A stretch of 63,976 nt of DNA, the filler included, from Dugesia japonica (lineage: Eukaryota), in NCBI GenBank assembly GCA_001938525.1. It is 7 parts of 7 records of this genome, joined end to end, with 100 filler letters (N's around TTAATTAATTAA, not from the genome) between each part and the next. Parts side by side here need not be neighbours in the genome. Positions count along the whole stretch, not along the records: positions 9,458 to 18,347 come from MQRL01609631.1; 6 more parts are not named here. One strand, given 5' to 3'. The stretch's first letter is position 1. Every line of letters starts with the position of its first letter. Below the pieces are notes generated by a model, which saw nothing but the letters and a program-made list of their open reading frames with translations, ran no database searches and was not told the origin of the DNA. Positions 5,276 to 63,431 of the stretch are shown here, piece after piece. The position numbers and the translations under genes were made by a program.

Positions 5276-8200
5276 TTTAAAATTGGAAAAATTTAAAGTC
5301 TCAAAATTTGAAAAGAATATTTACAAATTGTATGAATTTCTAATTTAAACATGTGTGAATAATATTGCCCTGTTTTTCCATTAAAAGCTAGTGACTTAGT
5401 AGAGTTTACTGAGCAAAAATGTGGTTAGTATGGAGTAGTGACCTAATAGATTGTGGTGGTTTAATAAAAAAAAGAATAAAAATAAAATAAAATTTTAAAA
5501 AAAAGATTTATTATTTATTAGAATTACTATTTGCCATTTTAAAACATAACAATTCACTTATCATCAAAGGAAATTCATAAGTGAAGTATTATGTTTTGAA
5601 ATGACAAATAGTATTACTAAATCAGAATCTATTCATGAAAAGAATTGTAAAATCTCTTTCAGGTGATTAATTTACAAAATATTTTAAACATTTTCAATAT
5701 TTAAGAAAAATCAACATGTATCAAATTTATAATAAATAGAATATTTATAAACTAATTCAATACGCCACAGTACTTAAAACTAAAAGAATAATAATAACTT
5801 TAGGATACTTGGCCAAATACAAAACACTTATTCTTCCAACCCAAGTTCTTAAACAAAAAAACGCAAAATATAAAAACATCAAGTAATTCTCAACCACCAC
5901 TTAATAAGCACAAGTTCAAACTTTTAAACAGTTTAAGGATGTGGGCTCGCTAACGAAAACTTTTCAACGAGATGCAAAAGAACCATGTATCAGTTGCTCA
6001 ATATTTTGTTAAATTTTAATGCGTTTACGTTATTTTCATATTTATAGAAGTAACATAATAAATCCTTTACTTAACTTTTATTGCTAACGTCGTAGAAAAA
6101 GTAAAAAAGCCTTTTCAGCAAAACTCAATGAGCTAAAACATTAAATAAATGTGGATGAGATAGAAGACTTGAAAACATATTTCTAAAACGGTTACAATAA
6201 AATATCTGTTAAAAAATTAACAAGAATCATAAAAAAATATAAAACACTTAGTTATAATTCCTACATTCAACCATTTTACTAACATCATAAAAAGGTATTA
6301 TCTGCCAAATATATTAAATAAATATTTCTTTCGATCAAAGCCCAATTGTAAGTTTTGGTTTTCTACAAGTTTATGTTTTGGATGACTATGTTGAGTGTGT
6401 GCATAATGTTTTGCTACATCGAGTGACACTGTAATGATAATAATGCAAGTATATTAAAATAATTAATATAAAGATACAATCTATTATAAATAATAGAGAC
6501 GATAAATATTATAGTTAATATTATTAGCAAAAGTTTGACTGACATAATTATTTTTTCCATTCTCTAATATATTAGTAATATTTTCTTAGTGATTACAAGC
6601 AATTTAATTTTTTCTTTATAATAAATTTCTTTTTTAATATTTTTTGAATCTTTATTTAAGGCAATTTATACCTAGGAAAAATTTTATTTTATACCATAAT
6701 TTAATCGATACTAATCACATTTTAATTGATTTAGCCCATATTTACTTTTTTTTATAATAGCAATTAAGTTTCTTTACGAAAATTTTATTTTAAAGTTTTC
6801 TAAAAATATAAAATATTTGTTGAACTAAATACCTTACTATAATTATATTGAATAACCAGAAAAGCCAGCACTATAACAAAATAGTGAAGGTATTAAAATA
6901 CTATTGCAAAAAATGCAGAAGTAAACCAAACACATAAGATAAAAGAACCCCAAAAATGACACCTGAAAGATTAAAAGTTAATGATAAATGAAATGCTAGA
7001 ATTAACAAAGAGAAACCAAAATAGTGTGAAAAGCAAAACTACGACCTATAACCAACAAGATCAAATAAAACAAAAGTAACAAAGTAATTCCAAAAATTAA
7101 GAAAACAATCAACAAACTGAAAGTGAAATCAAATTACATTGTATAAAAACATAAAAGAAAACTGTCATGAAGTTGAAAATAATAATCAACTAGAACAGAT
7201 CGGAAACTATTACGGAATAGCGTGTCAGGAAAAAACAAATGTTTAACGAAGAAAATACAGAAAATGAGAAAATAGAAAAATCATTTAATAATTGATAAAT
7301 ATTAACTAAAACAGAGGATAATTATTTTAGAAAATAAATTAAATAAATGGGAAAGAAGTAAATGCACCACAATAATGAATTTATTTGAATAAAGAAATGG
7401 TTAACAAATTAAGAAAATAAAAATGAGGATTAAAGTAGAAGAAATGATTTAATTTATAAATAAACAAATTTAATTATTAATTTTGAAGGAAAATCATCAA
7501 AAATGATCAATTCTATTGTAAAAATTGCAGGACAATAAAATGATGTAATATAACATGCAGAATATAAAACAAATGATAGAAATCTGGAAGACCTTCTACT
7601 AGTGAAAAAAGTAAAAATAACTAATTGGAAATCACCACAATAAAGTGATATTTTTAACTAGTCAGTAGCTTCTAATAGAGAAATTTTATATTAGCCAATA
7701 CATTTTTCATACTTCCATGTTTAAAAAGGTTAAGGTTAATTATTCTATCTTATTTATAATTGAACAGACTAACTTGCTGTCTAGATTTTTACGTCAAATT
7801 ATGTTCGTAGTCAAATTTTTAAATATCATTGCATATCATCTCAAATATCATTGAATTCCAGAGTTAGTGGGACCCTTGTCATATGAATAAACCGATGACG
7901 CTCGAATTTTTTTTTATCTAATCTGTTTTTGACGAGTTATGTCTATAAATTTTATTGAAATTAATAATGAAACAGTAATGAAAAGTAAAATTTTTACTAA
8001 TTTTTGTGATTATCTCAAATAAACTTTAATTTAATATTAATATCTTTTAGTAAAGTCAAACTTGTATTGAATCATATTAAAGTTTTATGATTATTTTAAG
8101 TAATCATTAATTTAGTAGCTATCATTCATAAAAAAATTTAATTGAATAGTAATTTTTAATAGATAATAAATATTTAATAGTTATTAATAGTGATTAACTA

Positions 8201-9026
8201 GAATAACACACACGTTGCAATAATAAGTTACTCCAGCTTTTTAATGTGTTTATGTTAGTTGCCAAGATATTTAATTTGATGACAACANAGAAGATAAAAC
8301 GAATGAAAAGGCGACGTAAATTGTAAAATGCATCAAAGTCACAAGATTCTTCTGGTCCAAAAACAAACTAATACACTTAATCAAAACTATTAAATCCAGC
8401 ATTTCTTGTTTCTATTATCTAATGTAAATTATCATATTATCTCCATTTTAATTGTCTTCATATTTGGAGCTGACTTCAATCATCTGACGAAATGAGTGTA
8501 AATTCCAATCAGGATCAGAATAATCTTCAATTATTTGGCAATAGACCGTACATTCGCCAAGAACAGAGCTACAATTCCTAATGGGTAATGAAAAGTAATT
8601 CGCTAGAACTAACTTGCTATGCACTTTCTAATCATTGCGGAAAAATCACCAAAAATAAAATTTCAAAAAATGACTCTTTGGAACCCAACCATAATTTTAT
8701 AACTTCTTATTTCTTAAGAAATAAGAAACAATATCGCTACAAAAATTAAGTATTAAAAGAAATTCTACTAATTCGAGTGTTATAGAAATCGTTTCAGTGG
8801 AGAAAAAAGCATCAATCACTGTTAATAGAAATCAATCATTGGCGACAAGAGCGAATGACATCATTCAAATCAAAATTGGTTTCTTTCAAGCTAGCACAAT
8901 ATTTCCTAATTGTTATTTCTCGGAAATAAAATTTATCATAGAAACCTGTTTTAGCCGCTGAATGACACTTAAGCTACGATTAATGCTAAGGTCAATAATA
9001 ATGGATCTATTATCTAAATGGAAAAG

Positions 9027-9357
9027 AGTAGGGGGATAGAAGCGCATTACGGCAATTTTTTTAGCAGACCCCCCGGGGGGGCTCGGAAACACGTAACGAT
9101 GAGGGTATGATTTTTGGGATCAATTTTTTTTGATCGGATCAGATTTTTGGGATCAAATTTTTTTTTTGATCAGATCAGATTTTTTTTGATCGGATCAGAT
9201 TTTTGGGATCAATTTTTTTTGATCAGATCAAATTTTTTTATCTTTTTAATATCTTTTTTTACGTTTTTTTAAAGAATTTTTTTGGCGGAAATTCAAAAAG
9301 AAATATTTTTGGTCGGAAATTCAAAAAAATTTTTTTGGTGGGAAATTCAAAAAAAAA
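9027..9357 (+). mobile_element. Probable Maverick/Polinton-type terminal inverted repeat with subterminal tandem repeats
   Basis: Starts AGTAG; GC-rich head (atag-aagcgca...gcagacccccc...acgtaacga) shared with 28329-28400 on the minus strand; followed by tttttgatcggatcaga and ggaaattcaaaaa repeats up to the contig end. Confidence 0.45.
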
Positions 9358-9457
9358 NNNNNNNNNNNNNNNNNNNNNNNNNNNNNNNNNNNNNNNNNNN
9401 NTTAATTAATTAANNNNNNNNNNNNNNNNNNNNNNNNNNNNNNNNNNNNNNNNNNNN
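9358..9457. other. Artificial contig linker (N-TTAATTAATTAA-N)
   Basis: 100-nt spacer with a palindrome giving stops in all six frames; the same spacer occurs at 18348-18447, 28229-28328, 38247-38346, 46920-47019 and 55688-55787. Confidence 0.97.
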
Positions 9458-10133
9458 CGCTTATTTTTTGTTTAAAATTAATTAATTTTCTTGTATTAAT
9501 TAATTATTTTTTATTATTGTTTTTCTGGTTGTTTCTTTTAACGTTATTAATAATTTTAATTGTTGATCAATAATGGTTCATTTCTTCTACACCTTCTTCA
9601 TTGCATGTTCCTTTCTTTTTTATTACCACCTTTATGAACTTTTATTACTTTTCCCGGCCTATTTTCTACTTTAGTGGGTGTTCCACCCCAACAGAATTAT
9701 TATAAAATTTTACGTAATCGATCCGGAACCTTCTCCTGGTAATGAAAAATAGAAAAATTGATGTGCGATCAATTGGAGATCAGTATGGCTAAAACATTTT
9801 CATTGGTTGATGTTAGATTGTAAAAATCTTCTTGACAGTTTTTATTTGTTGATACATTTTATTGGTTTTCTCTTCGTGTAATTGAGCTGTGTGTGGATGA
9901 TGGAGTATATAAACGATTTGAATTTTTGTAAATATTTGCAACATTTTGCCCAAAAAAAATTATTGTGTATTTGGCGTCAATTTTAATAAAACTTATTCGA
10001 ACAATTTGTTTGTTTAAATTAATTTTTTATTCTGCAAAACGGACTTTTATCTGATCAATGGAGTCAGATAAATTATTCATAGTCAATTACTTTAACATAT
10101 TCAAGCTTATTCTTGGAAAACACCCAACAAAAC

Positions 10134-10151
10134 TCGTGAGCCCGACGTGAT
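10134..10151 (+). promoter_or_regulatory. Primer-binding site, tRNA-Trp type, just after a probable 5' LTR end (...cccaaCA at 10129)
   Basis: tcgtgagcccgacgtgat matches the tRNA-Trp PBS tggtgaccccgacgtgat at 16/18 positions; it lies 4 nt after CAACA and upstream of gag. Confidence 0.75.
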
Positions 10152-10232
10152 AGGTAATTGCGGAAACCAAAAAATTATTTATCAATTGTTAACTTATCAA
10201 AGTTCCAGTGCCAAGAAACAAGAAAAAGCGAT

Positions 10233-11270
10233 ATGTCTCAGGATGACAGTATAATTTAAGAAATCGAGAAATTAAAATTGAAAACGATAGTGATATGAAG
10301 GAAAATGTCAATGTTACTGAAGACGGCAATGTATCTAATGGATCCAATTGTTAGAAATTACCTGTTGCGCAGTACGGAGGAGATTTTGTGAATTTTGTGG
10401 ATTTTATGAGAGATTATTATATGTATAACAAAGCCTATGTATGGCCAGAAAAAATTATGGTAATAAGGTTACCACTTTATTTAAAGGGAGCTGCGAGAGA
10501 CGCATATTGTCAATTAAATGCAGCAAAATTGGATACTTGGGCGCATTGCAAAGATGCACTAGCTGAACGATTAGTTAGTGAAGATGTTGGCAGAATTATG
10601 AGAAAGAAATTCTATAACCGAGTTCAAAATGAAAATGAATCTGTAAATGAATTTGCATTTGATTTAAGCACTTTGTATGAAATAATTAATAGACAATCAC
10701 CAAAAGTTTGAAAGAAACAGCAATTTTCAACAAATATCTCCAAAAAGAACCGTAATATGTTTCAGGTGCCTAGCAAAAGAGCATACTGCTAATCAATGTC
10801 GCACAAAGTTATTCAATGAAGGAAATCGAGAAAGTAGAAGATCAATTAAATGCAATAATTGTGGACGATTAGGAAATTTATCTAGAGATTGCACTGCACC
10901 AAGGTCACGTAGCCCATCAACCTCTCGATCTCCACAAAAAAATCGGCTGAATTTTAAAAGTCAACAACAATGCTATTCACGCAAAAAGTATGGCCACATT
11001 GTAAGATCATGTCCAAATAATGTGGATCGATTTCATAAACCAATATTAAAGAAATCGGTAAAAATTGATAATAATCCTGTAGTAAATGCTACTTTCTCAC
11101 CTGATAATGATTTCAGAGGAAATTTTGAGGCAGAAATGGATGAAATGAGACAAAAATTGGATAGATTCACTACAAATGGCTCGGATAGTGAAAATGATAA
11201 TCTAATGATATTTTTTGAAAATGAAGATGCAGAAATTGATAAAAAGATGCCAGAAAACAATTGTCAAATT
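10233..11270 (+). pseudogene. gag: Ty3/gypsy-type Gag (capsid plus two CCHC zinc knuckles), disrupted
   Basis: RLPLYLKGAARDAY and FYNRVQNENESVNEF (retrotransposon gag/MHR-like); knuckles CNNCGRLGNLSRDC at ~10851 and CYSRKKYGHIVRSC at ~10970. Confidence 0.88.
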
Positions 11271-11299
11271 TCACCCATTATTGACGACGTGGTAGTGGA

Positions 11300-11670
11300 C
11301 AAAGGTCGAATTTTATATCCACATTTGTCGAAAAATATCGAAAATTGCGAGCAAGATATGTAAGAGATCTTAACAATTTTGAAGGAATTAACGAAAATGA
11401 AGTTTCCATTAGAAAAATTGGAAAACGTAATGAGAAAATGTATCTCGAATTTTGGTACTGGAGTAAAGCATATTACTGATATGAGACTCGTTATGGCGAA
11501 AATTGGTCAAGAGATGCAAAGAAATTCTTGGTTAGAAGACATATGTGTAGTTATTGTTAATGAAAATGACGATAAACCTACGAGAAATATTAGTGCCTAC
11601 AGTACTGTTAAAGAACAAACTCAAACGATCAGCGAACTTAAAGGATGGAAAAACGTTAAATTGAAATTTG
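11300..11670 (+). pseudogene. Divergent Bcl-2-like domain, copy A, directly upstream of the env signal peptide
   Basis: ILYPHL...ISELKGWKNV with the same 111-codon LYP-to-GW spacing and the same position relative to env as copy B; one in-frame stop at 11361. Confidence 0.45.
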
Positions 11671-11771
11671 CTAATCAAATATTGAATGATATAGATACTT
11701 ATATTGTGGATATTAGAATGAAAAAGCAAGCCAAGCAAAGAAACACTCTATTTTCAACGAAATTTGGGGGC

Positions 11772-13180
11772 ATCTTACCATGGTTGTTTATAATGATCAT
11801 TATGATTAGCCTGGTTAATAACACATCGTCACTAACCACTTATGACTGTTCACATACCGAATTAGGAAAGTTTTATTCATTAGTCGATGTGGCGGAATGT
11901 CAAGGAGCTTATCCATTGAAACTGAAAACTGAGGAAAATGTACCATATTATATTTATCGGCAGTCAGGTTTTCGTCGGACAATGGTTTGCGAATGTATAG
12001 TGAAACGAACAACTTTTATCTTCTATTGCATAAAGTGGAGTCATTCGTCATTAAAAGATTTTAAATCAATACCAAGGTCAGTGGATATCACACCTGAAAA
12101 TTGTAAATCGGCTTTTCAAACAAAGGAAATTAAAATTAATGCGGAGATTAAACTATCTGCGAAAAAGAATTTTATTATCAGAGAATCATTTACCGTTAAA
12201 GGAAAACTTTTGGAGAATGGAGATTTTGAGGGTGAATCTTAAAAAATTGTGGAAAGTATTGTTGATAAAACAATGATTGTTGAAGAGTATTCAACAGAAT
12301 TACGAGAATTTGAAGGGACGTTTGACGAAGTAACAGGACAAAGGCAAACGCACCCGTTTTGTGACATGTATAGTACTTGTTGTCACACAGGAGAATCTAT
12401 GCCTGTGTATAAAGTAAAAGTAAAGAAGTGTAATTTAGTTCAATTGAAAAGGACAGAATTTACTGAAATAGCTGGGGAACATATTAAAGTCAAACTGGAT
12501 GTTTCTATAGTTCCTAAAAATGAACGTGGTAGACAAATGTCACCTGTCGAAAGAAACCCAACACCTATTGTGCTTGTAACATCAGTAAAAGAGGAAGGAA
12601 TGAGATTTATAAGAAAAGAAACTGTCATAAAATGCGGTTAAACAGTATACGAAACAAATTATAAAGGTGTATATGTGTCCAAATCAAGAATTGAAGATGC
12701 TAAGGAGAATATACATATTCCGGAAATCAAATTAGCGCAATATTTTAATAATAATATAGTCTTTATTTTTCATTTTCAAATTGGAACAATATCAAATTTA
12801 TATCGGGAAATAATATTAAATGATTGTAAATTGAACAGAGAAATTTTACAAAGTCGGATGACAATGGTAATGACAAACCCAAATGTGGTTGCACCCATGC
12901 TTATTGATGAGAATGGGATATTTGCTAGAGTCTTGGGGGAAGCATTGTATAGGTATAAATGTAAAGAGATACCGGTTAAAATCATAAAATATGATGAATG
13001 TACGAACAAATTGCCAGTTAATGTAGATGGAACATTGAGATTTATGGAACCTATAACAAGAGTGTTAATAGATAAAGATTCAAAGCCAAAGAAATTAGAA
13101 TGCAATCGGGTGTTAGCACCTTTAAACAAATTAGCTCCTGATACTTGGATATCATTTCCAGGCAGAAAACAATTAGAGCC
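11772..13180 (+). pseudogene. env: Envelope glycoprotein, chuvirus-G / herpes gB-like class III fusogen, copy A (C-terminally truncated)
   Basis: Signal peptide ILPWLFIMIIMISLVNNTSS, then LTTYDCS...YSLVDVAEC, ECIVKRTTFIFYCIKWSHSS, NDCKLNREIL and GIFARVLGEALYRYKCKEIPVK...ECTNKLPV...FMEPITRVL...C; single frame with stops at 12240 and 12639. Confidence 0.8.
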
Positions 13181-28328: not shown

Positions 28329-28400
28329 TTTCGTTTCGTTACGTCACGGCGGGGGGGGGCTCTGCATGTGTGTGCGCCAGTGCGCTACTATCTATCTACT
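28329..28400 (-). mobile_element. Probable Maverick/Polinton-type terminus related to 9027-9100
   Basis: Reverse complement begins agtagatagatagtagcgca...gcagagccccc...gtgacgtaacga, with the same motif order as 9027-9098. Confidence 0.45.
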
Positions 28401-28789
28401 TTGGATAGAATTGATAATAGTGAAAGGCCTGGTATTTATACAATTAACGATATTGAGAAGGCGCAAAAACATATGCTTTCCCCAATACAAAGAGAGAAAA
28501 TAATATCAATAATGGTCGATAAATTAGCAAGAAGGAGTAATGGAGACGATGTAAATTTTGAATCACTATTGCACGCAGATCATTTTAAAAGGACAATGCG
28601 CAATTTTGTAGATAGATTTTTGGGGGAATGCAATGGTTTGGCAATATATTCTCATGTATTTTATTTGGGTGGTATGTATTAACATTTTTAAAATTAGCAG
28701 GTCATCAAATACTTTCTCTAAGACAATTACATGCAGTTTTTGGTTACACATGGAAATTAGGAGCATGTTTCTGCCCATTTATTGCAAAA

Positions 28790-31700
28790 CCATAGTGAAA
28801 AAATAAAAAATCTAGAAAATAATCGAGGCGTCTATACAGTAAACTTAGATGATGAGCAGGAGTTAAAAAAATTAACTAATGATAGATCATCAGGTACAGA
28901 ATATAAACCATATAAACAAGAAAATATTGAATTAGAACAGATAAAAATAGATGATTCAACACAATATAAATATCAAAAGAATTACTCAATGTCAGTCATA
29001 GATTCGGAAAATAATAGACCCACAACCGATATTATAATAAATGGAATTAGTATACCTTTATTAATAGATACAGGAGCAGTATGCTCAATAATAAAAGAAC
29101 CATGATTAAATAAAGCCTAAAGACAGAAAATAAAAAATTATAAACCAGAAGGTATAAAATCATTCAGAGGTCATATAATAAAAACAAAAGGCATAATTGA
29201 ATGTACGGTCTTAATTGGACAAGAAATTGTGACACATCCATTTAGAGTGATGGAAAATGGAACATAAAATTGTATTTTAGGTATGGATTTTCTGGAAAAA
29301 TTAAAAGGGTACGTCATTGATCTACAAGATAGCACATTAAAAATGATAACATCATTACCGGTGCAAGATGTAGGTAATGTAATAATAACAGTGAAACGCT
29401 GTAGCGAATGTATAATACCTGTAAATACAGAAGTACAGAATAATAAATCATATATTTTTGAACCAAATGATAAATTGATAGAAAAACATAATTTATCAAT
29501 AATGTCTGGATGTGTAGAGCCAAGAAAAGGGATAATACCAATGAGAATAGCTAATTACAACAATTACGATGTAAAACTCCGAAAAAATACAAAATTAGGA
29601 AAATTGTTTGAAAATGGAAATGAATATGAAATATATGAAATTGTAGTTGAAGAACAAAATAAAGAGTGAACTTACAGAGGCAGAATGAACAAGCCCAAAA
29701 TACAAAATCAGTGAAAAAGGGTTGTCAACTAAATAATCATGAATTATCTGAACTTATAATGGAAAAACAAGAAAAAATTGATAAAGTAATTGACAAAAAA
29801 TTAATAAAACAGAAACAAGCAAAATATTATGAAAAAGCGAAAATAACAAATACAGATCTTACTATAAATCAGAGACAACAACTACAGAAATTATTAGATA
29901 AATATGAGCATGCATTCGCTAAACATGAGTTTGATATGGGAGGAACAAATATTATAAAACATATAATCGATACAGGTGATGCAAGACCAATAAAACAACG
30001 ACCGTATGTGGCACCATATGCGTTAAGACCAGAAATCAAAAGACAAGTAGCGGAAAAGAAAGCGAATGGAATCATACGAGATAGTTTTTTTCAATGGGCA
30101 TCGCCAATAGTACCAGTTAAAAAGAAAGATGGTGAAATTAGAATGTGTATCAATTACAGAAAACNNNNNNNNNNNNNNNNNNNNNNNNNNNNNNNNNNNN
30201 NNNNNNNNNNNNNNTACATGAACAATTTAATAAATTAATGAATGCAAAATATTTTGCAAGTTTAGATGCTAATAAAGGTTATAATGTATACCTAGTACAA
30301 GAAGAGGATCAAGAGAAAACAGCATTCTGTACTGATGATGGACTATATGAATTTGTTAGATTACCGTTTGGACTATGTAATGCACCAGCTACATTTCAAA
30401 AATTAATGAACACAGTGATAACAGGTGTGGAGCATGTAGTTGTATATGTGGATGATATACTCATAGCATCTGAAACATTTGAACAACATTTAATTAATAT
30501 AGAAAATGTATTGCCCAGATTTAGAAAAGCGAATATTAAACTAAAACATAACAAAATGTAAATGGGCAGAGGAAAGTGTTTTATTTCTCGGACATATTGT
30601 ATCATCAAAGGGATTGGAGCCAAATCCAGAAAAGATAAAAGCGGTCCAAAAGTTTCCAGTGCCAAAAAGCGTACAACAATTACAAGGATTTAATGGGTTA
30701 GTGGGATATTATCGGAGATTTATACAAGGTTTTGCAAAGATATCAGCACCATTGGTAGAAATAACAAAAGGTATGAAAACAAAAGGTGAAAGTAAAAATG
30801 TCATGATTGTAGAACAATAAGATGAAAAATCAAGGAAGCCTCAGAAGAAATGGGGCCCAAAACAACAAGAAGCTTTTGATACATTAAAACAACGATTGCT
30901 AACAGCTCCAATATTAAGATACCCTGATTTTACAAAGCAATTCATAGTAATGACAGACGCAAGTGGATTTGCCATGGGAGTAGTACTCGGTCAAGAAGAC
31001 GAAAAAAATTAAGATTATGTAATTGCATATGCCAGTAGAATGTTAAAAGGAGCAGAGACAAGGTTTTTAACAATTGAAAAAGAATGTTTAGCTATCATAT
31101 TTCCGTTAAAACAATTTAGACCATTTATATATGGAACAGAAATAATTATCCGAACAGATCATAAACCATTAAAGGGTCTATGGAAAAATAAAGATGCATC
31201 CAGTAGAATACTGAAGTGGGCAATGAAAATCCAAGATATGAGCATACGTATTATATACATGCCAGGTAGAGCAAATAAAAATGCCGATGCATTATCAAGA
31301 ATTCCGGAAATAAATATATTAGAAATGATGTCAATTGTTATGACAGGAACAAACCCAAAAATGTTTTTGGAGGAACAAAATAAAGATATAAAATACAAGA
31401 GGTTAAGAAGATGATGCTTCAAGAAAAGAATACTAAATATAAAATGTATAAGAATTTGCTTATGTAAAATAATTTAGGAAAAAATCTGATGGTTGTACCA
31501 GATTCTCTAAAACAATTGTTATTATTACAATATCATGATGGAGCGCTCAGAGGGCACTTGTCTACTAGAAAAACCACGTCAAGATTACTACAAAAATACA
31601 ATTGGGATAATATCAAAGAGGATGTAAAGAAGTGGTGTCAAGCATGTAGTATCTATGCCACAAGAAAGAATACAAGAATAAAAACCAAGGTTCCATTACA

Positions 31701-32580
31701 ACCAATGCCAATACCCAGCTCACCAATGGAAACATGTGCAATGGGTTTTTTTAAGCAAGTTACCAACAACAATAAAAGGCAACAAACATATATAAGTATT
31801 CAATGATTATTTTACAAAGTGGGCAGAGGCATTTCCTACAAAAGATGAAACAGCAGATACAGTAGCAAAGTTATTAGTTGAAAAGATAATATACAAATAT
31901 GAAGCACCAAAAAAGCTGCTATCAGATAGAGGGAAAGGTTTCCTCAATGAAGTCATACAAAGAATAACAAATATGTTCGATATTAAAAAAATTAATACGA
32001 CGGCTTATTACCCACAAACTGATGGGTTAGTTGAAAGATTTAACGGTACATTATGTAATAGATTGGCAGTTTTCGTAAATAAACATCAAAATGATTGGGA
32101 TCTATTCATTAAACCAACATTGTTCATACATAATACAACTGAGAACGAAGCCACTGGATATTCACCATTTTATCTTATGTATCTAAGACAAAATCATATG
32201 CCTATAGATATAAAATTTGAGCCAATTTTATCACAGTATATGGATAATCCAGATTATGTTACGAAAATGCAAGAAAGATTACAAGAAGTATATAAACAGG
32301 CCAATCTAAAAGTAAAATTCAAACAGGATCAATACAAAGACTATTATGACAGAAAACCTAAAAAACATAATTTTAAAGTAGGAGATAAAGTGAGGATAAA
32401 GACACCAGTTACACAAAAAGGGTTAACAAATAAATTAGCAAGACCTTATAAAGGTCCATATGAAGTAGTAAAAACAACTCTTGCGAACTTGCACGTATAA
32501 AAAATAAAAAAGATGATCCCAAGATTGTGGCAGTTAACCAATGCAAAATGGCAGATGCAGAAACTGATCAAGATCACAAA
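28790..32580 (+). pseudogene. pol: Ty3/gypsy Pol: aspartic protease, spacer, RT, RNase H, integrase
   Basis: LLIDTGA; WASPIVPVKKKDGEIRMCINYR; LPFGLCNAPATFQ; YVDD; MTDASG; IEKECLAI; TDHKPL; NADALSR; HHCC-like YHDGALRGH...CQAC; YPQTDGLVERFN; YKGPYEV. Many stops and frameshifts. Confidence 0.96.
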
Positions 32581-33457
32581 ATTCATTATCACTCTTTGCA
32601 CTAACTTTAGTGACATTATTAAAAATAGGCGCAGCTCAGCTGGAGAAAGAAGAAAGTTTTGGTATTATAAAAGTGATAATATATTCCAATAGAATCGTAC
32701 TCAAGGCACCAAAAAATATAGCAATCGCTGCAACAATAAAAGAGCAAGTAATCGAATATGTCACAGCAAATGAATACATCACGAAGAAGAGATATGTTCT
32801 CAAAGCAATATCAATAAAATTTAACAAAGGATAGGCCAGATAGAAATAAAAGGACTAGAAGCTGATACAACATATAGTATTTGGATACACTATAGAATGA
32901 GTGGAGTCAAATAATTGAGACAGTAAAGATTACACTACCAATGAAACTAATTGCATAACAAAGATATTTAATGACTATTTCAAAAATACAGGAAAAACTG
33001 AGTACAACAAAACCACAGACAAAGGCAAAATTTATGACTATCCCTACAAGACAAGAGAAGTTGAGTACAATCAAACTACAGATAGAAACAACTGTTCATC
33101 ATAATACACTAATACATAGTAGTTCTACAGGGAAAACGACAACAAATGCGATGACCAACAAAAATTCAAAAGGAGATAGAAAGACTTTGAATAATAACAT
33201 GAAATTAGATCATCAACAACNNNNNNNNNNNNNNNNNNNNNNNNNNNNNNNNNNNNNNNNNNNNNNNNNNNNNNNNNNNNNNNNNNNNNNNNNNNNNNNN
33301 NNNNNNNNNNNNNNNNNNNNNNNNNNNNNNNNNNNNNNNNNNNNNNNNTATAGGTGGAAGAGGCAGCGTTATCGGCGTCGCAGTGCCCCACAAATTCCGA
33401 ATTATGTCCAATGGACATTGGTTTGAACACCCAATACCAAATTTGCAAAAAATGTTA
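32580..33457 (+). pseudogene. Accessory ORF: signal peptide, FN3-like domain, Thr-rich repeats, Cys-rich tail
   Basis: SLSLFALTLVTLLKIGAAQ leader; IEIKGLEADTTYSIWIHY matches the FN3 tyrosine-corner pattern; duplicated MTI...QEKLST.K.Q repeats; ends QCPTNSELCP...ICKKC*. Frameshifted and interrupted by a gap. Confidence 0.45.
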
Positions 33458-33808
33458 AAATTCTATATCATTATTTATATATATTTTTATTTATATAATA
33501 AGCTACTAATACATGTGGTAGTATATAGGACTAGTCAGTCCTTAAAATCAAAAATTAATTATTCCATTCTTTTAGAAATAACATCTCAACAAAAGATATC
33601 AGAAACAAGCCAGATCAATCAACACATTATAATTTATAACAGAAAAAACACAAAATACCATTCCTTTACACATTACATAATGTAGTCAAAACAGCACGTT
33701 ACACACATTCGACAATCAAATAATAATATACAGAAAACACATCAATACAAGCAAGCAGAACATAACATAACAAGAAAAGATAACAAAAACAGCGAATTAG
33801 CACAGTCA

Positions 33809-34994
33809 ATGCCCAATAAATCTACACATTCGGCAAACATTCCTTCATTCTCATCCTTAGTCACAAAAGGTGTCGCGCATTTTTATAACCATATACAAAG
33901 TTTTGTGTTCAAAGTTAAAGATAGTGAGCCTAGGATAGAAGTTTTTAATGGTGCAAATACAATCCCGAATGTCTTAAAGAACAACACTTTTGATAAAGAT
34001 ATCATTATGATACGATTTCAGAAGGCTCAGAGATACTCACTACAACAATTGATTGGATATATAGAAATAGAGTGAGATCCACAAGAAGCACTAATAAATA
34101 GCAAACGAGTACTTAAAGAAATTAGATTACATGTTACAAAAACTCCTATTAGATTCTCATATAAAAAGAGATATACATATGCTTGCAAACAACACATTGA
34201 TATTAGAAGGACAAATAGATCCAGGAATGAACGAAATAAAAGTTGCAATACACGATATTCCAGCCGTTCTTTGTGTAGAGTTAATTTATCATGATCGTAT
34301 TCCTGTACCTTTCCCTACATATACTGCTATAAAAGGGCATTGCGCAGTAAACTATATAGATTTAATTAACTATACATCGTTCCTCAAATATGCAATCTTA
34401 ACAGAAACTGATATTGAACAATTAATAGTATATGTAGATATGATAACAGTCAAGGATTCATATTTCAATCTGCAAGTGGTAGAGTTGACTATATTAGATA
34501 ATAAAGGAGAAATTATATTGGACCAAACCCTATGTCAACGAGAAAGGATAAAGCATTTTGACACGCCGAGTACAGGGTATACCCATGAAAAGATAAAGAA
34601 ATTTCAAGATGCATATCCTATAATTCTGAAGGCACGGCAGTTACTGTACGGGAAAATACTAGTCGACTTTGAATTAGGAAATAAACTAACGAGTCTACAC
34701 ATTGACCACAGACATGTTATTGGTATCATAGATCTTGCGGAAGACAGATGGCATAAGACGTATACTCCAAATGTAAAGAAGTTGAAATTGATCCACCATA
34801 TGGAAGCAGTATTCAAATCCATAAGGCAGGATAGGGTCATCGGAGATATGTTGAAAACAGCGAGAGAAAAAGCGCAGGAATCAACAGCAAAACGAATAAC
34901 ATTCATAAAGATTACATACAAACAAATAATTACTCAGCAAACATGGCAAGATTCTATATATCCTGGTAATAATCCGGTTATGGAAGGTATATAA
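33809..34994 (+). pseudogene. Accessory ORF ending in a REX4/ISG20-like DEDDh 3'-5' exonuclease fold with altered catalytic residues
   Basis: LIVYVDMITV...VELTILDNKGEIILDQTL...IKHFDTPSTGYT...LLYGKILVDFELGNKLTSLHIDH...IIDLA follows the REX4-family pattern VAIDCEMV...ARVSIVN..G.V..D....SGI...LL.GKILVGH.L.NDL..L.L.H...DTA. Confidence 0.7.
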
Positions 34995-34999
34995 AATAA

Positions 35000-35740
35000 T
35001 GCGCCAATATTGCAAGAAGTCATGACTAGAGAAAAGGAGAAACCAGATAGTGTGATATGAATATTAGACTCTGGAAGAGAATAGAGAAGAGACAGATGGA
35101 AGCACATATAGTCAATCCAATATGGGTAATGACATGGATATAGAATGGGACGAGGTAGACTTACCAGAAGAACGTAGATTACATAACGACACTGGTGAGC
35201 AGCAGAGACTGATTGATGATATAATACAACGAAATCCTAAAGAGATACAAACTGATATGGACGCATCTGAGGTTGACGAAATTCCAGAAAGGACCATGTC
35301 ACAAAGAGACCAAAAGGAGTCTGAAAGTGAAACTGAATACTGGTCAGGTGAGGAAGTGGAGGATCTTAGTTTAGATCAAGTAAGAGGAGATCGCGAGGTA
35401 ATAACGTATTATACGAATAGCGACAGTGATGATCTTGGTCCTGAGCCACAAATTGATATATATGAACCTGGTACTGTCAATTTAAATAGAGCCATCAAAA
35501 TAGATAAGTTGGATGGAAATATTAACAATGCAAAAATAACTTTGTAAAGGATATCGGGTAAAGATATGCAACTACAGTTTGGAAAGAAACGCATTAGATT
35601 GACAACCATTAAAGAAGATAGTAAGAAGACATTAAAGTTTGTTGTTGAAAATGTTTTGCTTAACACCATTGCTGTCACGAAAAGGGTGCCACTCTTACAC
35701 TTTCCGTTAACAATGATTAAAACACATTATATATATCTAG
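35000..35740 (+). pseudogene. Accessory ORF, strongly acidic, unknown function
   Basis: ORFs 35122-35547 and 35566-35802 are in one frame separated by a single stop; D/E-rich. Confidence 0.45.
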
Positions 35741-35798
35741 TAATTATTATTATAATGTCTTTCTTTTTATACCTATTATTGATATTATATATTTTAGA

Positions 35799-37076
35799 AT
35801 GAATTCCGATTTTCAATCTCAGCAACTATTTTTATTAGACAAAACACGCATCATATTATATGAAAAACATAGAAGCCTCACGAATCCTTATAACTACTGT
35901 TGGCAGGACATTGAATTAATTATCTTGTTCATTGAAGACGACCCCATATGTCCCTTATGTTATGACCAGCCTTTATTACCTCGAATAGCACCCTGTGGAC
36001 ACTTCTTTTGTTTCGCTTGCATAACCCAATACTTTCATGTCACCAACTCTGATAATGTACCTTGCTCTTCTTGTAGAACTCAAAGAGTATTTAACACTTA
36101 ACTAAAACGTGACAACTTTTGTTACATTACTCGACCCCATATCGAACAATTCATTCCATTAACCCTCCTGATTAAAATGCCATATAATAATTGCACACGT
36201 TTTGCTCATCTTACCCATGTAATTCAGCAGATGGATGTCCCTGATAGTTGTAACTCCATTAGCGATTTCCAAGACATCTGCATCCAATACGATTCTCTAT
36301 CAATAAAACAGATTAACAACAACATTAGGACAGTTAATTATGGCCAGTTCACAGCAGCGCAAAAAAGGAAATTGATCAAGCTACTTAAAATTGAAAGAAA
36401 ACATTTTACATTCAATATTAAAATTCTTGATAAGTTTGAACACGAAAAGTCGTTCACAGATAAGACCCGTAATGAGGATAAATTCAATCTCCTCGCCCAT
36501 TACTCTACACTAACAAATGTTGAGTTATTTTACCAAACAGCTATCTTCCCACGAACTTTTCTCAACAATGTGCAGACAAAAATGTTTTTAGACAATCAAT
36601 CTGAAGACATTCCCTTTCGCATGGGTGGATACATCACAGCCATGGAAGAAGTAATCGTTGATCACCATTTAGATCTAAATAGACCATATCATTTCCTACC
36701 TAATCGAACAAAAATTAGAATAGTGACAATCCGAATGGAGACATCCTCCACCTCAAGACATCTTGGCCCATTAAGTTATCTACACATTCATGCCAATATA
36801 ACAAGGCTAGCAATAGAGAGGCGTAATAAAGATTTACAAGATATCGCAAACGAGAGTAAAGCTAGAGTAAAGCCGGGTCAACTGGCCAGAATACTCACCC
36901 GTCACTCCAATACAAAAGCAATGGATATTTTCTCTAGAAGCCCTTCTGTTTGCCCATCTTCCATAAATCCAGAAGCCGAATTCCCGGCATGTATTTTCAA
37001 TGAACCTTGTTCCAATGATACCTTTTCACCGTATCACGATATTGCATGTCCTTATTTCGCGTTTACCCAAAGATGA
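35799..37076 (+). pseudogene. Intronless RNF10/Mag2-like C3HC4 RING E3 ligase inside the retrotransposon (426 codons, one internal stop at 36099)
   Basis: QLFLL...WQDIELI...CPLCYDQPLLPRIAPCGHFFCFACITQYF...CSSC, then LK...IPLTLLIK, FYQTAIFPRTFLNNVQTKMF and YHFLP...IRIVTIRM; these follow the order of RNF10 blocks (ELFLQAN, W..VEQV, RING, FYQAEDGQHMFLHP.N...L, YLSHLP..CEFSICEL). Confidence 0.75.
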
Positions 37077-39378: not shown

Positions 39379-40059
39379 TTAATCATTCGATGAATACTTC
39401 AAACTGATCTAACAGTATGCATACATCTTACACATATATTAGTTATCTAAAAAACATTGAAATTAATTATATTGATATATAGTATTGTAACTATATATAA
39501 CAAACCTAAAAATCTTTTTTTAAAATAATATACTATTATTTAAATATTCCAATTGATATTGAACTATATTATAGTTTTAAAAGCAAACCATAAAATATTT
39601 TATTGAGTAGAAATACCCAAAAATTGATTGCTTCACAATATAAAATATTATTAATTATAAATTATAATTATAACTGTAAATAATTATAATTTTTAAAAAA
39701 TTTTGATGACATTCGAATAAGAATAAAAAACTATATTTTATATAAAGAAATACTACATAGAAATGCTTCGTTCTCGTTGGGAAAGATGTGGTGCGCTGGA
39801 TAAATACTTCACTCGGTAAAGTTGTTTAGAAATTTTTCATTTTTAATTTTTGATAGAGACTACACGAATTGATACGCTTCGATATACAAATCCATATTTC
39901 AGGTTAGAAAATCCTCCCCAGACTGAATCATGTCCTGGTTTTGTCAGCTTGAAGCTGTATTTAAAATAAACAAAAAGAGAAGAAAAAGAAGATGGCGCAA
40001 GGAAATGGCAGGATTTATTTGGAACTCTAATAAGTTTCATCCACATCAGATATTTTTGC

Positions 40060-40690
40060 TCTGCAGTCTTCAATTTCTTCAATCTCCAGATTTCCAGCTT
40101 ATCCGTTGTGGAAACTCTAATGATCGAGACAAGAGCGAATTTTTTGATTGTGTTATCGAGGAACTTAACCTGTTTGATTACAGACTCATTTTCTACACAC
40201 CACAATCCCAGACACCCGATTGAGATCGTCTTAAGGAGAATTTCCATTTTGGGTAAGCTTTTCTGGATTTCCTCCTTGAGTGGTGTGTATTTCCCAATGT
40301 TTACGTCCTTCGCTAATTTTAGATTATTGGATGTATCATAGTGATTCTTTACTTCCAGAAATATAGTTCGCTTTCCCTCCTATTTATTAGTTGCAAGTCA
40401 ACGCGATCAGTCCTGTTAACAAGGTCACAGGTCTGATCGATGATGACTTCAAAGCAAGTGTTGGCCCTAATAAATCTGGCGAGTAGATCAAGCAAATCAT
40501 TGTTTTAAACGCTGAAGAATGGGGGCAATGACACAAGACATGTGCTTGAGTTTCCAAATGGAAACAATACTTCCGCCAGGCTTTTAATGGCACCCCATGG
40601 TTGCAACGTACTGGAAGTGTGCCGGTTCTTGCTCGGTGTATGAAACGCCATTGATCAGGTTTAATAGAGCCATCGTACAGCTGTTTGGTA
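40060..40690 (-). mobile_element. 3' fragment of an RLE-type non-LTR retrotransposon (NeSL/Utopia-like)
   Basis: QWRFIHRARTGTLPV, zinc-knuckle remnant C..LETQAHVLCHC, and ISIGCLGLW of the restriction-like endonuclease C-terminus. Confidence 0.75.
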
Positions 40691-43198
40691 GATAGTTGAA
40701 TAATTTGTGTTTTGTATATTTTGTAAGTAAAACATCAATTTTAAACGTGTATTTTGAGTTAACTGTTTTTGTTTAAATATTTTATGAATAATTTAAGTTT
40801 TAGAGTAAAATTGAGAAGGAAAAATAAATTAAATTTAAATTGGCCGTTATTATTTTTTACGAAAAATATGTAATAACAAAGTTTTTAATCGAGTTATTAA
40901 AAAATTATTAAGTGTAATAGTCAAAATTTGTTTAAATTAAACGAACTCTTGAAGAAAAAAGAACCTGTGCATTAACAAAATTGTAAACCAATACCAATTT
41001 GTAATTAAAATAAATGTTAGTATTTTTTAAAAAAGATTTACGTAACTCGCAGTTTAATTAATTATGTAATGGAAAGAGTATTGAATATCAAAGTTCATTT
41101 CAGGATGAACTTTTAAATGATAATCGCACACCAAAAATAATAATTATGAATTATTAAATTAAAAATAAAATATTTTAACATAAATATTTAGTGTATTTTT
41201 TTTACGGAGCATTATGGAATTTTTAGACTAGTAAAATTTATTTCATTTACAAACCGTTTTCGTTAATTAATTAAGTTTCTTATTTTTGTAAACGATCTGT
41301 ATTTTAAATTGAAAATAATTATATTTTATAGAAATTATTTTTTAAATTTTATTCTAGGTCATTTATTATAGATTTTATGGAATAAGTAGAATTTCAAGAA
41401 GTATTTTATCTAGAAATACTGAGAGAAGAAGAAAATATTTTTATTTAATTAATAAAATTTCTCCCAATTGACTGCAAACAAAGAATTTTTGCACACCTAT
41501 AAAAACCAAAGTTTAAGTAGCCCAAATAAGTCAATAATCACTGCATAAATACAATGAGGAAGTCACAAAATGTGAGAAAACCAGGAAACATTACAAATAA
41601 ATAAAAAATTAAATGCTAAATATCTATTTATTTTAATATGAATAATATTTATATATATTTCATAAAATTTATATTCCGAGCAGTAAAATTGTAATTAATT
41701 AAAATTTAATTAAAATAAATTAGCGAATGTGAAAAATAATACAAATGAGATCACCAATAAAAGAAATTAATAAAATATCATTTAACTGTAAAGTTTTACT
41801 TGTATAAAGGAAAGTATTTTTGTACTGAAAATTATATAAGTGATTATTTATTATCAAGTATTTTACAATTTTATTGCTTACTATATCAATGTTACAACAC
41901 AGAATTTATGAATTAATAAATTAAAGTAGTTATTGGTTTAAAAACTTAATTAAAAATATTATTATTTTTATTTTTCTTAGTGAAATATTGTAACCAAATC
42001 CAGTAAAATTCAATTTTTGAAATTGTAAAAATTTATTTTAATTTGAGATTGTTTAGTTCAATCATTTTAAATAAAATTTTTTTAAGCATTCATTTTTACA
42101 ATAATTCAAAATTTTAATTTTCGTAACATTTATGGAATTCAATCATAATTAAATTGTTTTATTGAATCTGCAGTCTATGCTTAATCAAATAAAGTCTAAA
42201 TTGATACGTTTGTAATCAGAAAATGAAAAGTAGTGTAGTATAATTTTAGCTAATTTTAGTTTCCCATGCGGAAATTGATACCAAATTATAAAGAAATAGC
42301 AGTTAATTTAGAGATTTTTAAAAACGGTAGAAAATATTATACGGAAATTTTTTTGCTAAATATGTTAAATATTAAACAGCTTTCTTGCTAGGATCAATGA
42401 GAGTATATACGTCTGCCTCCATTGACTACGCCCTCTATTATTTTTCGATATTTTGTTACTTATTTAAAATTTATCATAATCAAAGGTTCATCAAATTCGA
42501 AATATCAAGAACTAAAAAGAAAAGCTTTTTATTTAATGAAATCAAATTATTTATAGTAAAAATATTTTCTTGATAAATTGATATAGTATGAAATGATTTA
42601 TTTATTTGCTTGTTTGGTTGTGTAGAGTATAAATAAATGATAAGAGATAAATACAAAACGAAATTTGAAATTACTAATTGTAATCAATACAAATCATTAT
42701 TGAGTATCCAAATAAAATCAGATGAATACAATAAATTAAATTTATCAAAATAAAAACGACATTTATTTTTCTGAATTAGTATGATGTTTTAATGGTTGAC
42801 GGTTTCTTAAGAGCGAATATTGTGATGGTGTATTCGAAATCTTTTAAGAGAACCGGACAAGGTATTTTTTATATCTATTAACTTTGTAATTTCTTTTATT
42901 TTCTGAATATTCATAAATTCTGAAAAGTAAAACAATTTGTAAAAATGACTGAGAAAGGGCCACAAATAAGACAGGTCGTTCTTTACAGTGTAATTATATT
43001 GATTAATAATTCAGATCTTTTATATATAGGATTTCAGGATTATATCTAAATTTATGGATTTCGAGTGCTTGTTTTCCACTAAATATTATCTTCGAATTAT
43101 ATAAACCAATAAATAGTTTTCATGAGCAACTTTTTGGACTTATTGTAATTCTATAATTAAACAAAAGAAAATAACAATTACACATTTATTTTCTAGTT

Positions 43199-44140
43199 TC
43201 AACAAACATAAAATCTTCTCACCATATCCAAATCATTTCTTGATGTAACATGGTTGTAATCAATTATATCNNNNNNNNNNNNNNNNACAACATTTTCTCC
43301 AGGAACACAAGCGAATCCGTAGCTTGGATAGTGCATAACACTGTTTGTTTCATAGGGTCCATCTACTTCACAACCTTCACATTTTACGAACTGGCTGCAA
43401 TCTGTTAGATTAATTAATATTTATAATAAATAAATTTTAGTTGTCTTACGAGATGACAGAATTCTGTCCCATCTTATATATATGTGGCTGTCTCTGTCCT
43501 TTCTCATGTGTGTGTGCATGAATCCTAAAGCATGAATAAATTCGTGTTTTACTGTTCCCTTGGAATACATGCATCCTGGATTTTGTAAATTCAATGGTTG
43601 TTTCGGTCCTCCGGTGTAACCCAATAATGAATAACATCCTTGGTCCAGAGATTGTACTTCGATGTAATGAGATGCTGTTGATTCGCTGAATTTTACACAA
43701 TTTCCGAGATCTTTCTGTAATTCCACTAAGCATTCTCGAACAACACCTTTTTTGTCATTAGCTAAAACCAATCAAATTTCATCAATATCAACATGAAACA
43801 CTTACGAAATGCTGGTGCAAAAGAAAACAAAACTTGATTGTTTGGCCATCTCTTCGTGTTGGAATAATGAGCTTTGAACTGAAACATTATAAATAGTATT
43901 ATATTATTGTATCATGTCATATACAAATTGATTACTCCATTGATTAAAGCAATATCACTCTTGTCGAGAACCATATCACCCATTTGCATGCTATTCAGAC
44001 TTCGCTTCAATAATTTCTGAACACACACAAATACAAATAAATAATTTTTAATGCTATTTTACTTGTCGAGGACATCCGCATTGACCTGCCGCGTAATTTA
44101 TTGTTGCAATAATCAATAAGAAGCAAAATAATTTCTGCAT
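43199..44140 (-). CDS. Secreted astacin (M12A) metalloprotease, 5 exons, catalytic domain only
   Basis: Signal peptide MQKLFCFLLIIATINYAAG; prodomain GDMVL; RWPNN; GCYSLLG; HEFIHALGFMHTHMRKDRD; Met-turn SVMHY; short GT-AG introns (44 and 48 nt checked); stop at 43199-43201. Confidence 0.93.
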
Positions 44141-54549: not shown

Positions 54550-55687
54550 ATAATGAATGGTTATAATAAAAAGCCACATAACTAAATCAACTAAGAATAA
54601 ATACAAACCAACTGACATTTTAAAATCTATAATAAGAGCCCTAAATGCCAACTTTGGCATACCTCTTTGTTTTTTCCTTCTATTGATATCTGCTTTACAG
54701 CTGATGGCAGTTTATCAATCACTTGCCCAATCCTCTACGGGCAGATCGATAAACCATCATTTTGAATTTAAACGATTTTATTTAAATAACCATTACATAA
54801 AAGTAGAATGTGTTGCATATTACTTCCCTGACAGAATTTATGTCGAATAATTAAAATACAGTTGTTATTCCAATTTGAGATTTCTTCAAAACATATTAGT
54901 TTATGTTTTATTGTAAAAATGAAATATAGCTAAATTTCCCACGATTACTTAAGATCAGGTAAAAATCGATATTTTAAAACCAACCAATTATCACGGTAAT
55001 ATTTTTTTTAATTGGGTTGAGTTGAACAAAAATTTGTGATCCGAGCGGATGATGAATTTTGTCTAATAAGTAATGTTAAAAGTGTTTGGAAATACTAAAT
55101 CTAGTAGCTATTTTAAAAGTGAAATATGGTCAATCACCTATATTCTTCTGATTTTGATTTACTCCAATAGACGATCGCGATGCATCAGTGCATAGTATGA
55201 ATGTCTTTTGTTGATTTGGATTTTCCATTTCTGTCATTCCTGTTAACTTTAGTATCACCTTATGAAAAACATTTTCATGCTTTGTTAACTTTTTAAACGA
55301 TCTCTTGTTATCTAACGTTGAATGCTTATGCAATGGATCAGGAATATCTGTTGATAATCAATTCAGGTATTCAATAACTCGTTTTAAATGTTTTTCATGT
55401 TCTTTGCTTAATTTTGAATTGATCAAAATGTCATCAATATAACTTGAAGATAATGACTGACAGCTATATAGATACTTTTTATGTGTTTTTAAAATGCCTG
55501 ACACATTTTTTAATTCAAATCGCATTATTTTATATTCAAATACAGATTTTATATTTATATTCAAATTATCCATTTTTTTGCCATCTGATTTCTGGATGGA
55601 GATCCGGTGATATGCTTCTACTAGACCATGCGTGGATAAAATATTGCATTCATTGTTTTTGTCTAGCATGCAATTCAATATTAACTT
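54550..55687 (-). mobile_element. Highly degenerate Ty3/gypsy RT-RNase H fragment
   Basis: AYHRISI, FEYKIMRFELKN, YIDDILI...EHEKHLKRV, FILCTDAS. Confidence 0.85.
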
Positions 55688-56417
55688 NNNNNNNNNNNNN
55701 NNNNNNNNNNNNNNNNNNNNNNNNNNNNNNNTTAATTAATTAANNNNNNNNNNNNNNNNNNNNNNNNNNNNNNNNNNNNNNNNNNNNACGTGTATACACG
55801 TCGAACACAGTTAACTGGTTAATGCTTCGCAATTAGGACACAATGTCTTTAAAATATTCCTAAAATCATTTAATACCGAGTTGGGTACATTTTGACGAGG
55901 AGCATCAACATATATCATTATGGCTATGACATTATGATTTTTTCTTTGATTTAATCTTGTCTTTATTGTTGCCCGAAACCTTTTACCTACATCATTATTT
56001 TGTTATAATTTTTTTTGTAATAAAATGAAAACGCTTCTTCAGCAGTCATAAGAATCGCACTTGTTTAACTTAATGTTTCATTAGTCAATTTGATTGGAAG
56101 TAGTATGTTTATTAATTGTGGAAAGAATTCAAAATCTATTACGTTATATATATTAGGTAATTTAGAATAGCATAGATAATATTTTTTACATTAATGCTCT
56201 CTCTCTATCATTATTTCCAGAGAATTATATAAAGTTTTACAATCTAGTATTATATATAATTCACGTTTACATTCTTTTCGACAAATTATTGAAGTATATT
56301 ATTTCTAATTTTTGATTTTCTTAAAAATATTAATAACATAAAACTAAACTTAAAATTTTTGATTTAGTTATTGATTATCAATTTCAGAATCTATATTATT
56401 ATTTTCGCTAAAATCAT

Positions 56418-57574: not shown

Positions 57575-58229
57575 TAGGGTGTTCCAAAAAAAATTTCGTT
57601 TTTTAAAAGTTAGGAAAAATTAAACTGAACAACAACAACTATATATATTTATAAATGTTTAAATATTTAAATATAATTTCCATTCTTCTTGATTACTTCT
57701 TGCAAATGATTTTTCAAATGATTCAACTCTTTAGGTAACTTAGAACTTGTCATCTTATTTTCCATGAAATTCTGTATATATTCCAAAAGAGAATTATTAT
57801 TAGGAAATCGTTTTTTTCTTCTATCGAATTCGAGATTTCTAAATACGAATCTATTCAATAAATTTATATCAGGTGAGTAAGGTGATTGCTTTAATAATTT
57901 AATTTGATGATCTTTACAAAACTTTTGCGTTACGACAGCCGTATGAGGACGAGCATTATCATGCATCAGCTCCAGACATACAAATAAAAGTCACATTTTC
58001 GGTTGTAACGTTGTTTATTATATTGAATTTGGATGTGATGAGTAAAACAAATATATAATAATAATAAAACAAATATAATAAAACAAATAATATAATAATA
58101 AAACTTTGATATAATAAAACAAATACAGTAAGTTTATTTTCATATTAATTAATTTAAATTGAATTGATAAATGTTTATTTTAAATTGATAATTAAATTTT
58201 CCTAAACGAGATTTCTTTGGAACACCCTA
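57575..58229 (-). mobile_element. Internally deleted Tc1/mariner element
   Basis: TIRs tagggtgttccaaa / tttggaacacccta with TA flanks; ORF 57667-57966 HDNARPH...PYSPDINL. Confidence 0.92.
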
Positions 58230-62365: not shown

Positions 62366-63431
62366 TAATTAACATCAAAATACAAACATGCATATTCAAA
62401 CTCATATTTTAGATAATTATTTACCCTCGTTTCTACAGAATGTCAATTTGGTATGTTTTTTCTTGTTTCAACTTTAAAAATGAACCAGCTAAAAATGTAT
62501 CAAAGATAGTTTGGATAATTAACACATTATCCACAAGAGAGATTGTATAATTTATAAAATATACAAAATGCTAAAATTTTAATAAAATATTAATAGACTA
62601 TATGTTTTGATTTTTGTTATGTTTCCAAAATTTTCCATCTACAAAATTGATTTTATTTTTTTTGTTTAAATAAAAAATGTAAATCAGTTGGAATTTGAAA
62701 TTTTAATAAGAAATTAAAAGAAGTCGTACTTCTAAATAAATTAAGAATTTTCGATACAGATTACACAATTTTTTTTAAAAGTTTTAATCCCAAAAAAAAA
62801 TTGTTTCCATCAATTCTCAATATAAATAAAATAAGAGAAAATTTGAAATTGATTAATTTGAAAATTGAAAAAAACTAACTTTTAGCCATATGTAAAAATT
62901 GTATTTTCATCCCTTTTGTTAAAACAAATACTACAAAAAACACCAGAATATTTTATTTTAGAAATTTCACGAATAAAAAATAAGTAAAATTAGAATAATG
63001 AATCACTGATGGGAAATTGTGGATTTATAAAAATAAAATAAGTTAAATGATGTTATCAGTATTTAAATTATATATTATACGAGTCTCATAAGACCATTAA
63101 ATGATGAATTAGCTGGGAATCACCACAATACAAACTCTTCAGTATTAAACGAGTCTGAATAGAATTAAGCAGGCAGATATTTTGTCAACGGACAAATCTA
63201 TTAATAATTTAGCATATGAAAAATTTTTTAAAATAAATAAAGTTTCCAATTTTCATAACTAGAATGCTAATCAGTAATTACTTTTAGTAATTGAATTAAA
63301 ATTAGACTGTCATATATTTATTGGAAATTAAAATAATTGCGATACTTTAATATTTTTAATTATAATTTTTGTAATTTGATTGTAATTTATTTAATGATTA
63401 AATAAAATTTTAAATAAACTAAATACTAAAC

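Follow-up and report, generated by a model that had tools for sequence, protein, structure and literature searches.

We find that the stretch at 11772-13187 is very probably a truncated gB/chuvirus-like envelope (env), interrupted by stops, from a Ty3/gypsy LTR retrotransposon that is now dead. The element was likely one of the gag-env-pol type known from planarians, and the stretch abuts pieces of two likely Burro-type relatives. The window, meaning the whole 63,976-nucleotide stretch of Dugesia japonica DNA analyzed here, is AT-rich, with about 20-26% GC outside the elements. The contig at 9458-18347, bounded by two N44-linker-N44 joints, holds this envelope (env1) in element A, a second envelope (env2) in element B, and element B', an inverted divergent paralogue of B. 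A third envelope (env3) lies on another contig.

Identity and decay of the element A envelope

Env1 (11772-13187, +), which has a signal-peptide-like start, was recognized by the Pfam family PF24664 (Monjiviricetes_fusion), by a homologue profile, and by a structural model. In a Pfam scan, its separate ORFs matched PF24664 at E 3.6e-17 and 6.3e-26. When X was placed at its two in-frame stops (both TAA, at 12240 and 12639), the match reached E 3.9e-46 and 157.7 bits vs. a cutoff of 27. On a profile of 632 positions built from 9 database env homologues, the part at 11784-13187 spans positions 6-467. Ending at position 467 of 632 and carrying two stops, env1 falls short of a complete ectodomain and is without its stalk and membrane anchor. 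A hydrophobic helix precedes the YDC motif in env.

An AlphaFold model of env1, built from a 12-row alignment, had a mean pLDDT of 66 and a pTM of 0.45. A Foldseek search with this model, a check that the preliminary description had proposed against gB and Jingchuvirales glycoproteins, returned 102 structures from the PDB at E ≤ 0.001, the best at 1e-8, and among the matches listed, all were gB. Global TM-scores with herpesvirus gB were low (0.22-0.28). In BFVD, the model matched the glycoproteins of qin-, chu-, and xinmoviruses, with a best E of 2e-23 and identities of 15-18%, and a search of the PDB by sequence with the env profile found no relative. Env1 belongs to the class III (gB/Monjiviricetes-type) fusion glycoproteins, and the gB/chuvirus-like envelope that the preliminary description had claimed at 11772..13180 is confirmed by the PF24664 match and the gB-like fold matches. 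The env copies at 11772-13187 and 15013-15438 are both relics, unable to make a working envelope.

Upstream of env1, element A retains a PBS-like site of tRNA-Trp type at 10134-10151 (+). The 18-letter pattern used, which includes one N, matched once in the window with one mismatch and in 0 of 100 shuffles; the tRNA-Trp assignment rests on this motif and is putative. The capsid part of gag follows at 10355-10711 (+; PF03732, E 2.1e-7), broken upstream and with a frame change downstream, and is 38% identical over 97 aa to the gag of the database protein P0009. The nucleocapsid part, at 10686-11363 (+), was identified by PF00098 (zf-CCHC, E 2.2e-6) and by translation, and has three CCHC-like knuckles, two of them degenerate. 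A linker at 11364-11771 (+), seen in translation, runs in the same frame as env1. We dropped a candidate Bcl-2-like domain before env1, suggested by a faint motif, after a profile search of this linker gave no match. The order of element A is therefore PBS-like site, gag, linker, and env1, with env1 in gag's frame, and it includes both a gypsy-type gag and a putative tRNA PBS. Element A is without the end of env, and the contig at 9458-18347 carries no pol at all, as the preliminary description had stated. By blastn, no paired LTRs were found in either contig, the elements being truncated and the contigs short.

Since its best viral structural matches are chu-, qin-, and xinmovirus glycoproteins, env1 might be read as an independent chuvirus glycoprotein EVE that was inserted by chance beside gag. 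This is almost certainly not the case, because those viral proteins are only 15-18% identical to env1 vs. 34-50% for its closest database env homologues, env1 shares gag's frame with no other chuvirus gene nearby, and all three env pieces sit in retroelement context.

Gypsy pol in envelope-bearing relatives

A phmmer search with the ORF at 14239-15231 against 1.84 billion representatives returned 20 matches. PF24664 was detected in 17 of these, in some below cutoff, and a Bcl-2-like part stands before env in seven (six by sub-cutoff Pfam scores and P0007 by alignment). P0014 and P0021, which are repetitive and without env, were dropped as chance matches, and P0020 (57 aa) was too short and had no Pfam match. 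Env1 was 27-50% identical to the 17 database env homologues compared. Within one ORF, P0009 has the order gag-CCHC-ubiquitin-like-Bcl-2-like-env. P0013 runs from a CCHC-like gag end through env-PR-RT-RH-IN in one 2627-aa ORF, and P0023 (4844 aa) has the order env-PRs-ankyrin-RT-RH-IN; in both, env shares a protein with PR, RVT_1, RT_RNaseH, Integrase_H2C2, and rve, arranged as in gypsy. The NCBI record of P0013 lists it as a hypothetical protein from a Flavobacteriaceae MAG, and it likely comes from a mis-binned animal contig. P0023, P0022, and P0007 have serial aspartic-protease-like domains between env and RT, with seven such stretches in P0023, including one tract with ankyrin repeats.

Env3 (28368-28819, +), found by PF24664 (E 9.8e-7, 27.5 bits, cutoff 27) and by the homologue profile, is frameshifted and represents the stalk and membrane portion at the C-terminal end of a third gB-type env, covering profile positions 480-618. 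Directly after it stands a broken Ty3/gypsy pol comprising PR, RT, RNase H, and integrase with a GPY-type end (29019-32512, +), and the best PDB matches of this RT were 4ol8 and Ty3-G Gag-Pol (7q5b), at E 1e-21. A PR-RT-RH-IN set of gypsy type is linked to env in env3, P0013, and P0023, and not in env1 and env2 themselves. That env lies between gag and pol is indicated by gag-env1 in element A, by env3-PR on the other contig, and by both in P0013. The Ty3/gypsy backbone claimed for env1 is thus supported by the PF03732 gag, by the gypsy-order pol of P0013 and P0023, and by env3 before a Ty3-like pol. The earlier view that this superfamily call rests on gag and PBS only had overlooked env3, directly before gypsy pol (28368-32512) on another contig. 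The preliminary description had also passed over the Ubl/Bcl-2-like cargo ahead of env2.

Judging from its sequence, env3 looks like a separate lineage from env1, being 30% identical over 47 aa to P0003, which is itself 50% identical to env1. We also considered whether env3 is the missing end of env1, given that profile positions 467 and 480 nearly abut; the low identity to P0003 makes this unlikely, with only 47 aa compared. A short GC-rich repeat end occurs at 9063-9105 (+) and 28329-28375 (-), near a contig edge both times, and at 28329 it adjoins the env3 start.

At E ≤ 0.1, no BEL/Pao families were found in P0013 and P0023, and none were listed for the window ORFs and P0024; the families considered were those of Pao-type gag and peptidase. 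The RT linked to related envelopes, which the preliminary description had singled out as decisive, comes with gypsy domain sets in P0013, P0023, and env3-pol. It is highly improbable that env1 was instead carried by a BEL/Pao element. The same class III glycoprotein type does occur in mosquitoes, on BEL/Pao elements that carry a Chuviridae-like G (Dezordi 2020, cited in the available parts of PMC13524379), and env1 has no physically linked RT. However, those elements belong to another superfamily and have another gene order, whereas the gag of element A matches PF03732 and resembles that of P0009, and the related pol sets are of gypsy type with Ty3 as the best match. We therefore retain Ty3/gypsy as the backbone of element A.

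Beyond the integrase, a broken coding stretch at 32503-33220 (+) appears FN3-like by eye and had no informative Pfam match; P0013 has a comparable extension after its integrase and P0023 a much longer one. Extra ORFs farther downstream, at 33686-37076 (+), probably serve the same large element as accessory genes. They include an acidic ORF, a stretch at 34098-34994 (+) that is exonuclease-like by eye with no Pfam match, and a RING-finger ORF at 35721-37076 (+; PF00097, E 1e-6).

Elements B and B' and their junctions with element A

Env2 (15013-15438, +) preserves the N-terminal ~140 residues of another gB-type env, which is cut at the B' junction. It matched PF24664 at E 5.6e-22 (77.9 bits), contains one stop, and covers homologue-profile positions 6-142. 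Its identity to env1 is 30-32% over 126-132 aa, so the second divergent copy that had been reported at 15013-15434 is present, at about 31% identity. In an env tree of 148 columns, built without a viral outgroup, env1 pairs with P0008 (98/95) and env2 with P0006 (96/95), with the deeper forks tentative. The glycoprotein phylogeny proposed in the preliminary description thus places env1 and env2 in separate supported pairs. Env1 and env2 most likely derive from separate elements, both decayed, rather than from a duplication within one intact element.

The middle of the element B polyprotein (13173-14330, +) is in frame with the env1 stump and contains one stop and a frame change near 14300. It is 26% identical to B' over 156 aa (E 2e-11) and shows the same 26% identity to the part of P0006 that precedes env (E 4e-7). 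Similarity to that part of P0006 also defines a ubiquitin-like stretch at about 13494-13760 (+), for which no ubiquitin-family Pfam match was found. Element B then continues through a low-complexity spacer with the frame change into a Bcl-2-like domain and env2. The Ubl, BCL2-like, and env parts share one frame apart from this single change between Ubl and Bcl-2-like, and support for the Ubl is weaker.

The Bcl-2-like domain (14497-14895, +), in frame with env2, has BH1- and BH2-like motifs and was identified by profile searches. It matched PF00452 at E 0.013, below cutoff, and Pfam scores were likewise below cutoff in all copies of the domain. A profile made from seven database homologues only finds 14683-14895 at iE 5e-10 among 648 targets, and a six-row profile matched Bcl-xL in the PDB at E 1e-5. 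A single-sequence model was poor (pLDDT 47), with Foldseek E-values of at least 0.079, and all the rows listed were Bcl-2-family structures. The BH2-like motif is present in all eight proteins examined, and only the element B copy of the window retains the BH1 Gly-Arg pair. A word-index search of this region among longer proteins gave no match, and an atlas search of the domain gave no informative family.

Element B' (15440-18347, -) has ubiquitin-like stretches and is cut just before its env. It includes its own frameshifted Bcl-2-like domain (15996-15551, -). Identity between B' and B is 37.5% over 96 aa and 33% over 52 aa, and ranges from 26 to 37% across their common parts. In the atlas, B' gave ubiquitin/Rad60-SLD at 0.83-0.88, which serves as a lead only.

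At about 13180, env homology ends and the frame runs on into element B without a stop, and at about 15438, env2 is cut and meets the inverted B' head to head. The B/B' joint (15434-15446) falls on a 5-base inverted repeat, for which chance or microhomology is possible. No piece bridging either joint was found among the 32 of 1763 pieces listed from four contig runs. In three DNA-type runs from one organism, 7,037-11,368 contigs match the contig at 9458-18347, together spanning its full length. Because these contigs number in the thousands and are mostly 90-95% alike, the elements are repeat families and this copy is aged. Summed contig depth in run X1, which is not a copy number, was about 1-5 thousand over A and 13-66 thousand over B/B'. 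Element B is a more abundant family than element A. One RNA run gave 194 reads, mostly <90% alike and 70% of them running on into unlike sequence, and was uninformative for this copy.

We read the juxtaposition of A, B, and B' as best explained by nested insertion or recombination, followed by decay. Alternatively, A and B could form one two-envelope family (gag - anchorless env1 - Ubl - Bcl-2-like - env2 - pol), or the joins could be assembly artefacts, as might be suspected from the in-frame, stop-free passage of env1 into B and from the lack of bridging among the contig pieces listed. This seems improbable because in B' the homologous point is preceded by Ubl-type sequence rather than env, and because the env of P0003, env1's closest relative, goes on to a normal stalk. 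Moreover, the depths over A and B/B' differ as given above, and none of the 20 phmmer matches shows two envs.

Known elements, envelope processing, and remaining features

The planarian element Burro/GYPSM1 has been described as one ORF containing Gag with two or three CCHC knuckles, a Ubi/SUMO-like domain, BCL2, env, and PR, with an env that matches mononegavirus fusion glycoproteins (PMC6431247). The same study reports decaying Burro fragments with stops and frameshifts in Dugesia japonica and, in its available part, cites Grohme 2018 and Jurka 2007 for Burro and GYPSM1 as giant gypsy elements. The pieces in our window are similar in their Retrotrans_gag with CCHC knuckles and their Ubi/SUMO-like, BCL2-like, env order. 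By contrast, only fragments are present here, whereas Burro measures 25-30 kb, with a single ORF of ~5000 aa and BIR/MATH/ankyrin cargo, and element A is without cargo. No BIR, MATH, ankyrin, or dUTPase was detected in the element pieces present. Elements B and B' are likely Burro-type relatives. Env similarity points to a planarian as the likely host.

According to the available parts of PMC13524379, Ty3/gypsy elements with a gB-type env are found across the animal kingdom, and nematodes, bryozoans, and flatworms have elements of gag-env-pol order; the available main text makes no mention of bcl, ubiquitin, or Burro. Among the elements that these parts describe are Smed_errantivirus_1/_2 of Schmidtea mediterranea, which are HSV/gB-type Ty3/gypsy elements of gag-env-pol order, intact and with 45 and 215 copies listed. 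Their gB-type env stands directly after gag, as in element A. Domains I-II of env1 share about 55% of positions with the Smed_errantivirus_2 row (~137/250, counted by hand rather than computed), and env2 looks nearer by eye to the Smed_errantivirus_5/_6 rows. Unlike these intact elements, env1 has two stops and is without stalk, anchor, and pol. The table in PMC13524379 gives no tRNA type for these elements against which to set the PBS. The Drosophila errantiviruses (gypsy, ZAM, and Idefix) also combine a Ty3/gypsy backbone with an envelope, but theirs is an F-type env in a separate ORF after pol. The available parts of PMC8532177 and PMC11410931 hold nothing further on env. The preliminary description had suggested a separate env capture, yet both a gB-type env on Ty3/gypsy with the flatworm gag-env-pol order (PMC13524379, in its available parts) and an env between BCL2 and protease in Burro (PMC6431247) were already published. 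A gB-type env on gypsy and both layouts are thus already known, and the window extends these two described groups by relics only.

Intact relatives would express one long ORF of gag - (cargo) - env - PR - RT - RH - IN, a domain order displayed by P0013, P0023, and P0009. The internal hydrophobic helix before the YDC motif would act as a signal sequence, at which signal peptidase would free env. Held in the membrane by its C-terminal helix, env would then form trimers and act as a class III fusogen, and its release may let particles spread between cells. In the window, the end of env and the whole of pol are gone from element A, B follows in frame, and B' is joined head to head with B.

More tentatively, the signal peptide of env may also serve, in intact members, as a tail anchor for the Bcl-2-like domain, although this is less likely than not. 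In all eight proteins examined, the BH2-like motif precedes the first cysteine motif of env by 53-83 residues, and a hydrophobic stretch ends this interval. One of the eight stretches is weak (mean hydropathy 1.03), which, like the restriction of the BH1 Gly-Arg pair to the window's copy, counts against the idea. The Bcl-2-like domain is present in seven database proteins and two window copies and is joined to the env signal peptide wherever env is preserved. If this proposal is true, cleavage by signal peptidase would release from a single polyprotein both a class III fusogen and a Bcl-2 mimic anchored in the membrane, and the predicted mimic would shield the cell, whether producing or infected, from apoptosis in the manner of viral Bcl-2 proteins. 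This idea of shared-anchor processing was not found in the literature searched, which lay outside subscription journals, and the domain order itself is already published. The Bcl-2-like cargo also gives a testable form to the question raised in PMC6431247 of whether Burro-like elements meddle with host apoptosis.

Elsewhere in the window, we observed a second gypsy RT fragment at 55133-55735 (-) and, by eye, a non-LTR-like zinc-finger/endonuclease end at 39843-40734 (-) and a mariner-like transposase end at 57667-57990 (-). Host exons, which mark the host as an animal, were also present, encoding a CSRNP at 63426-63773 (-), with 50-72% identity to many animals and no named flatworm match, and an astacin metalloprotease at 43421-43771 (-; PF01400).
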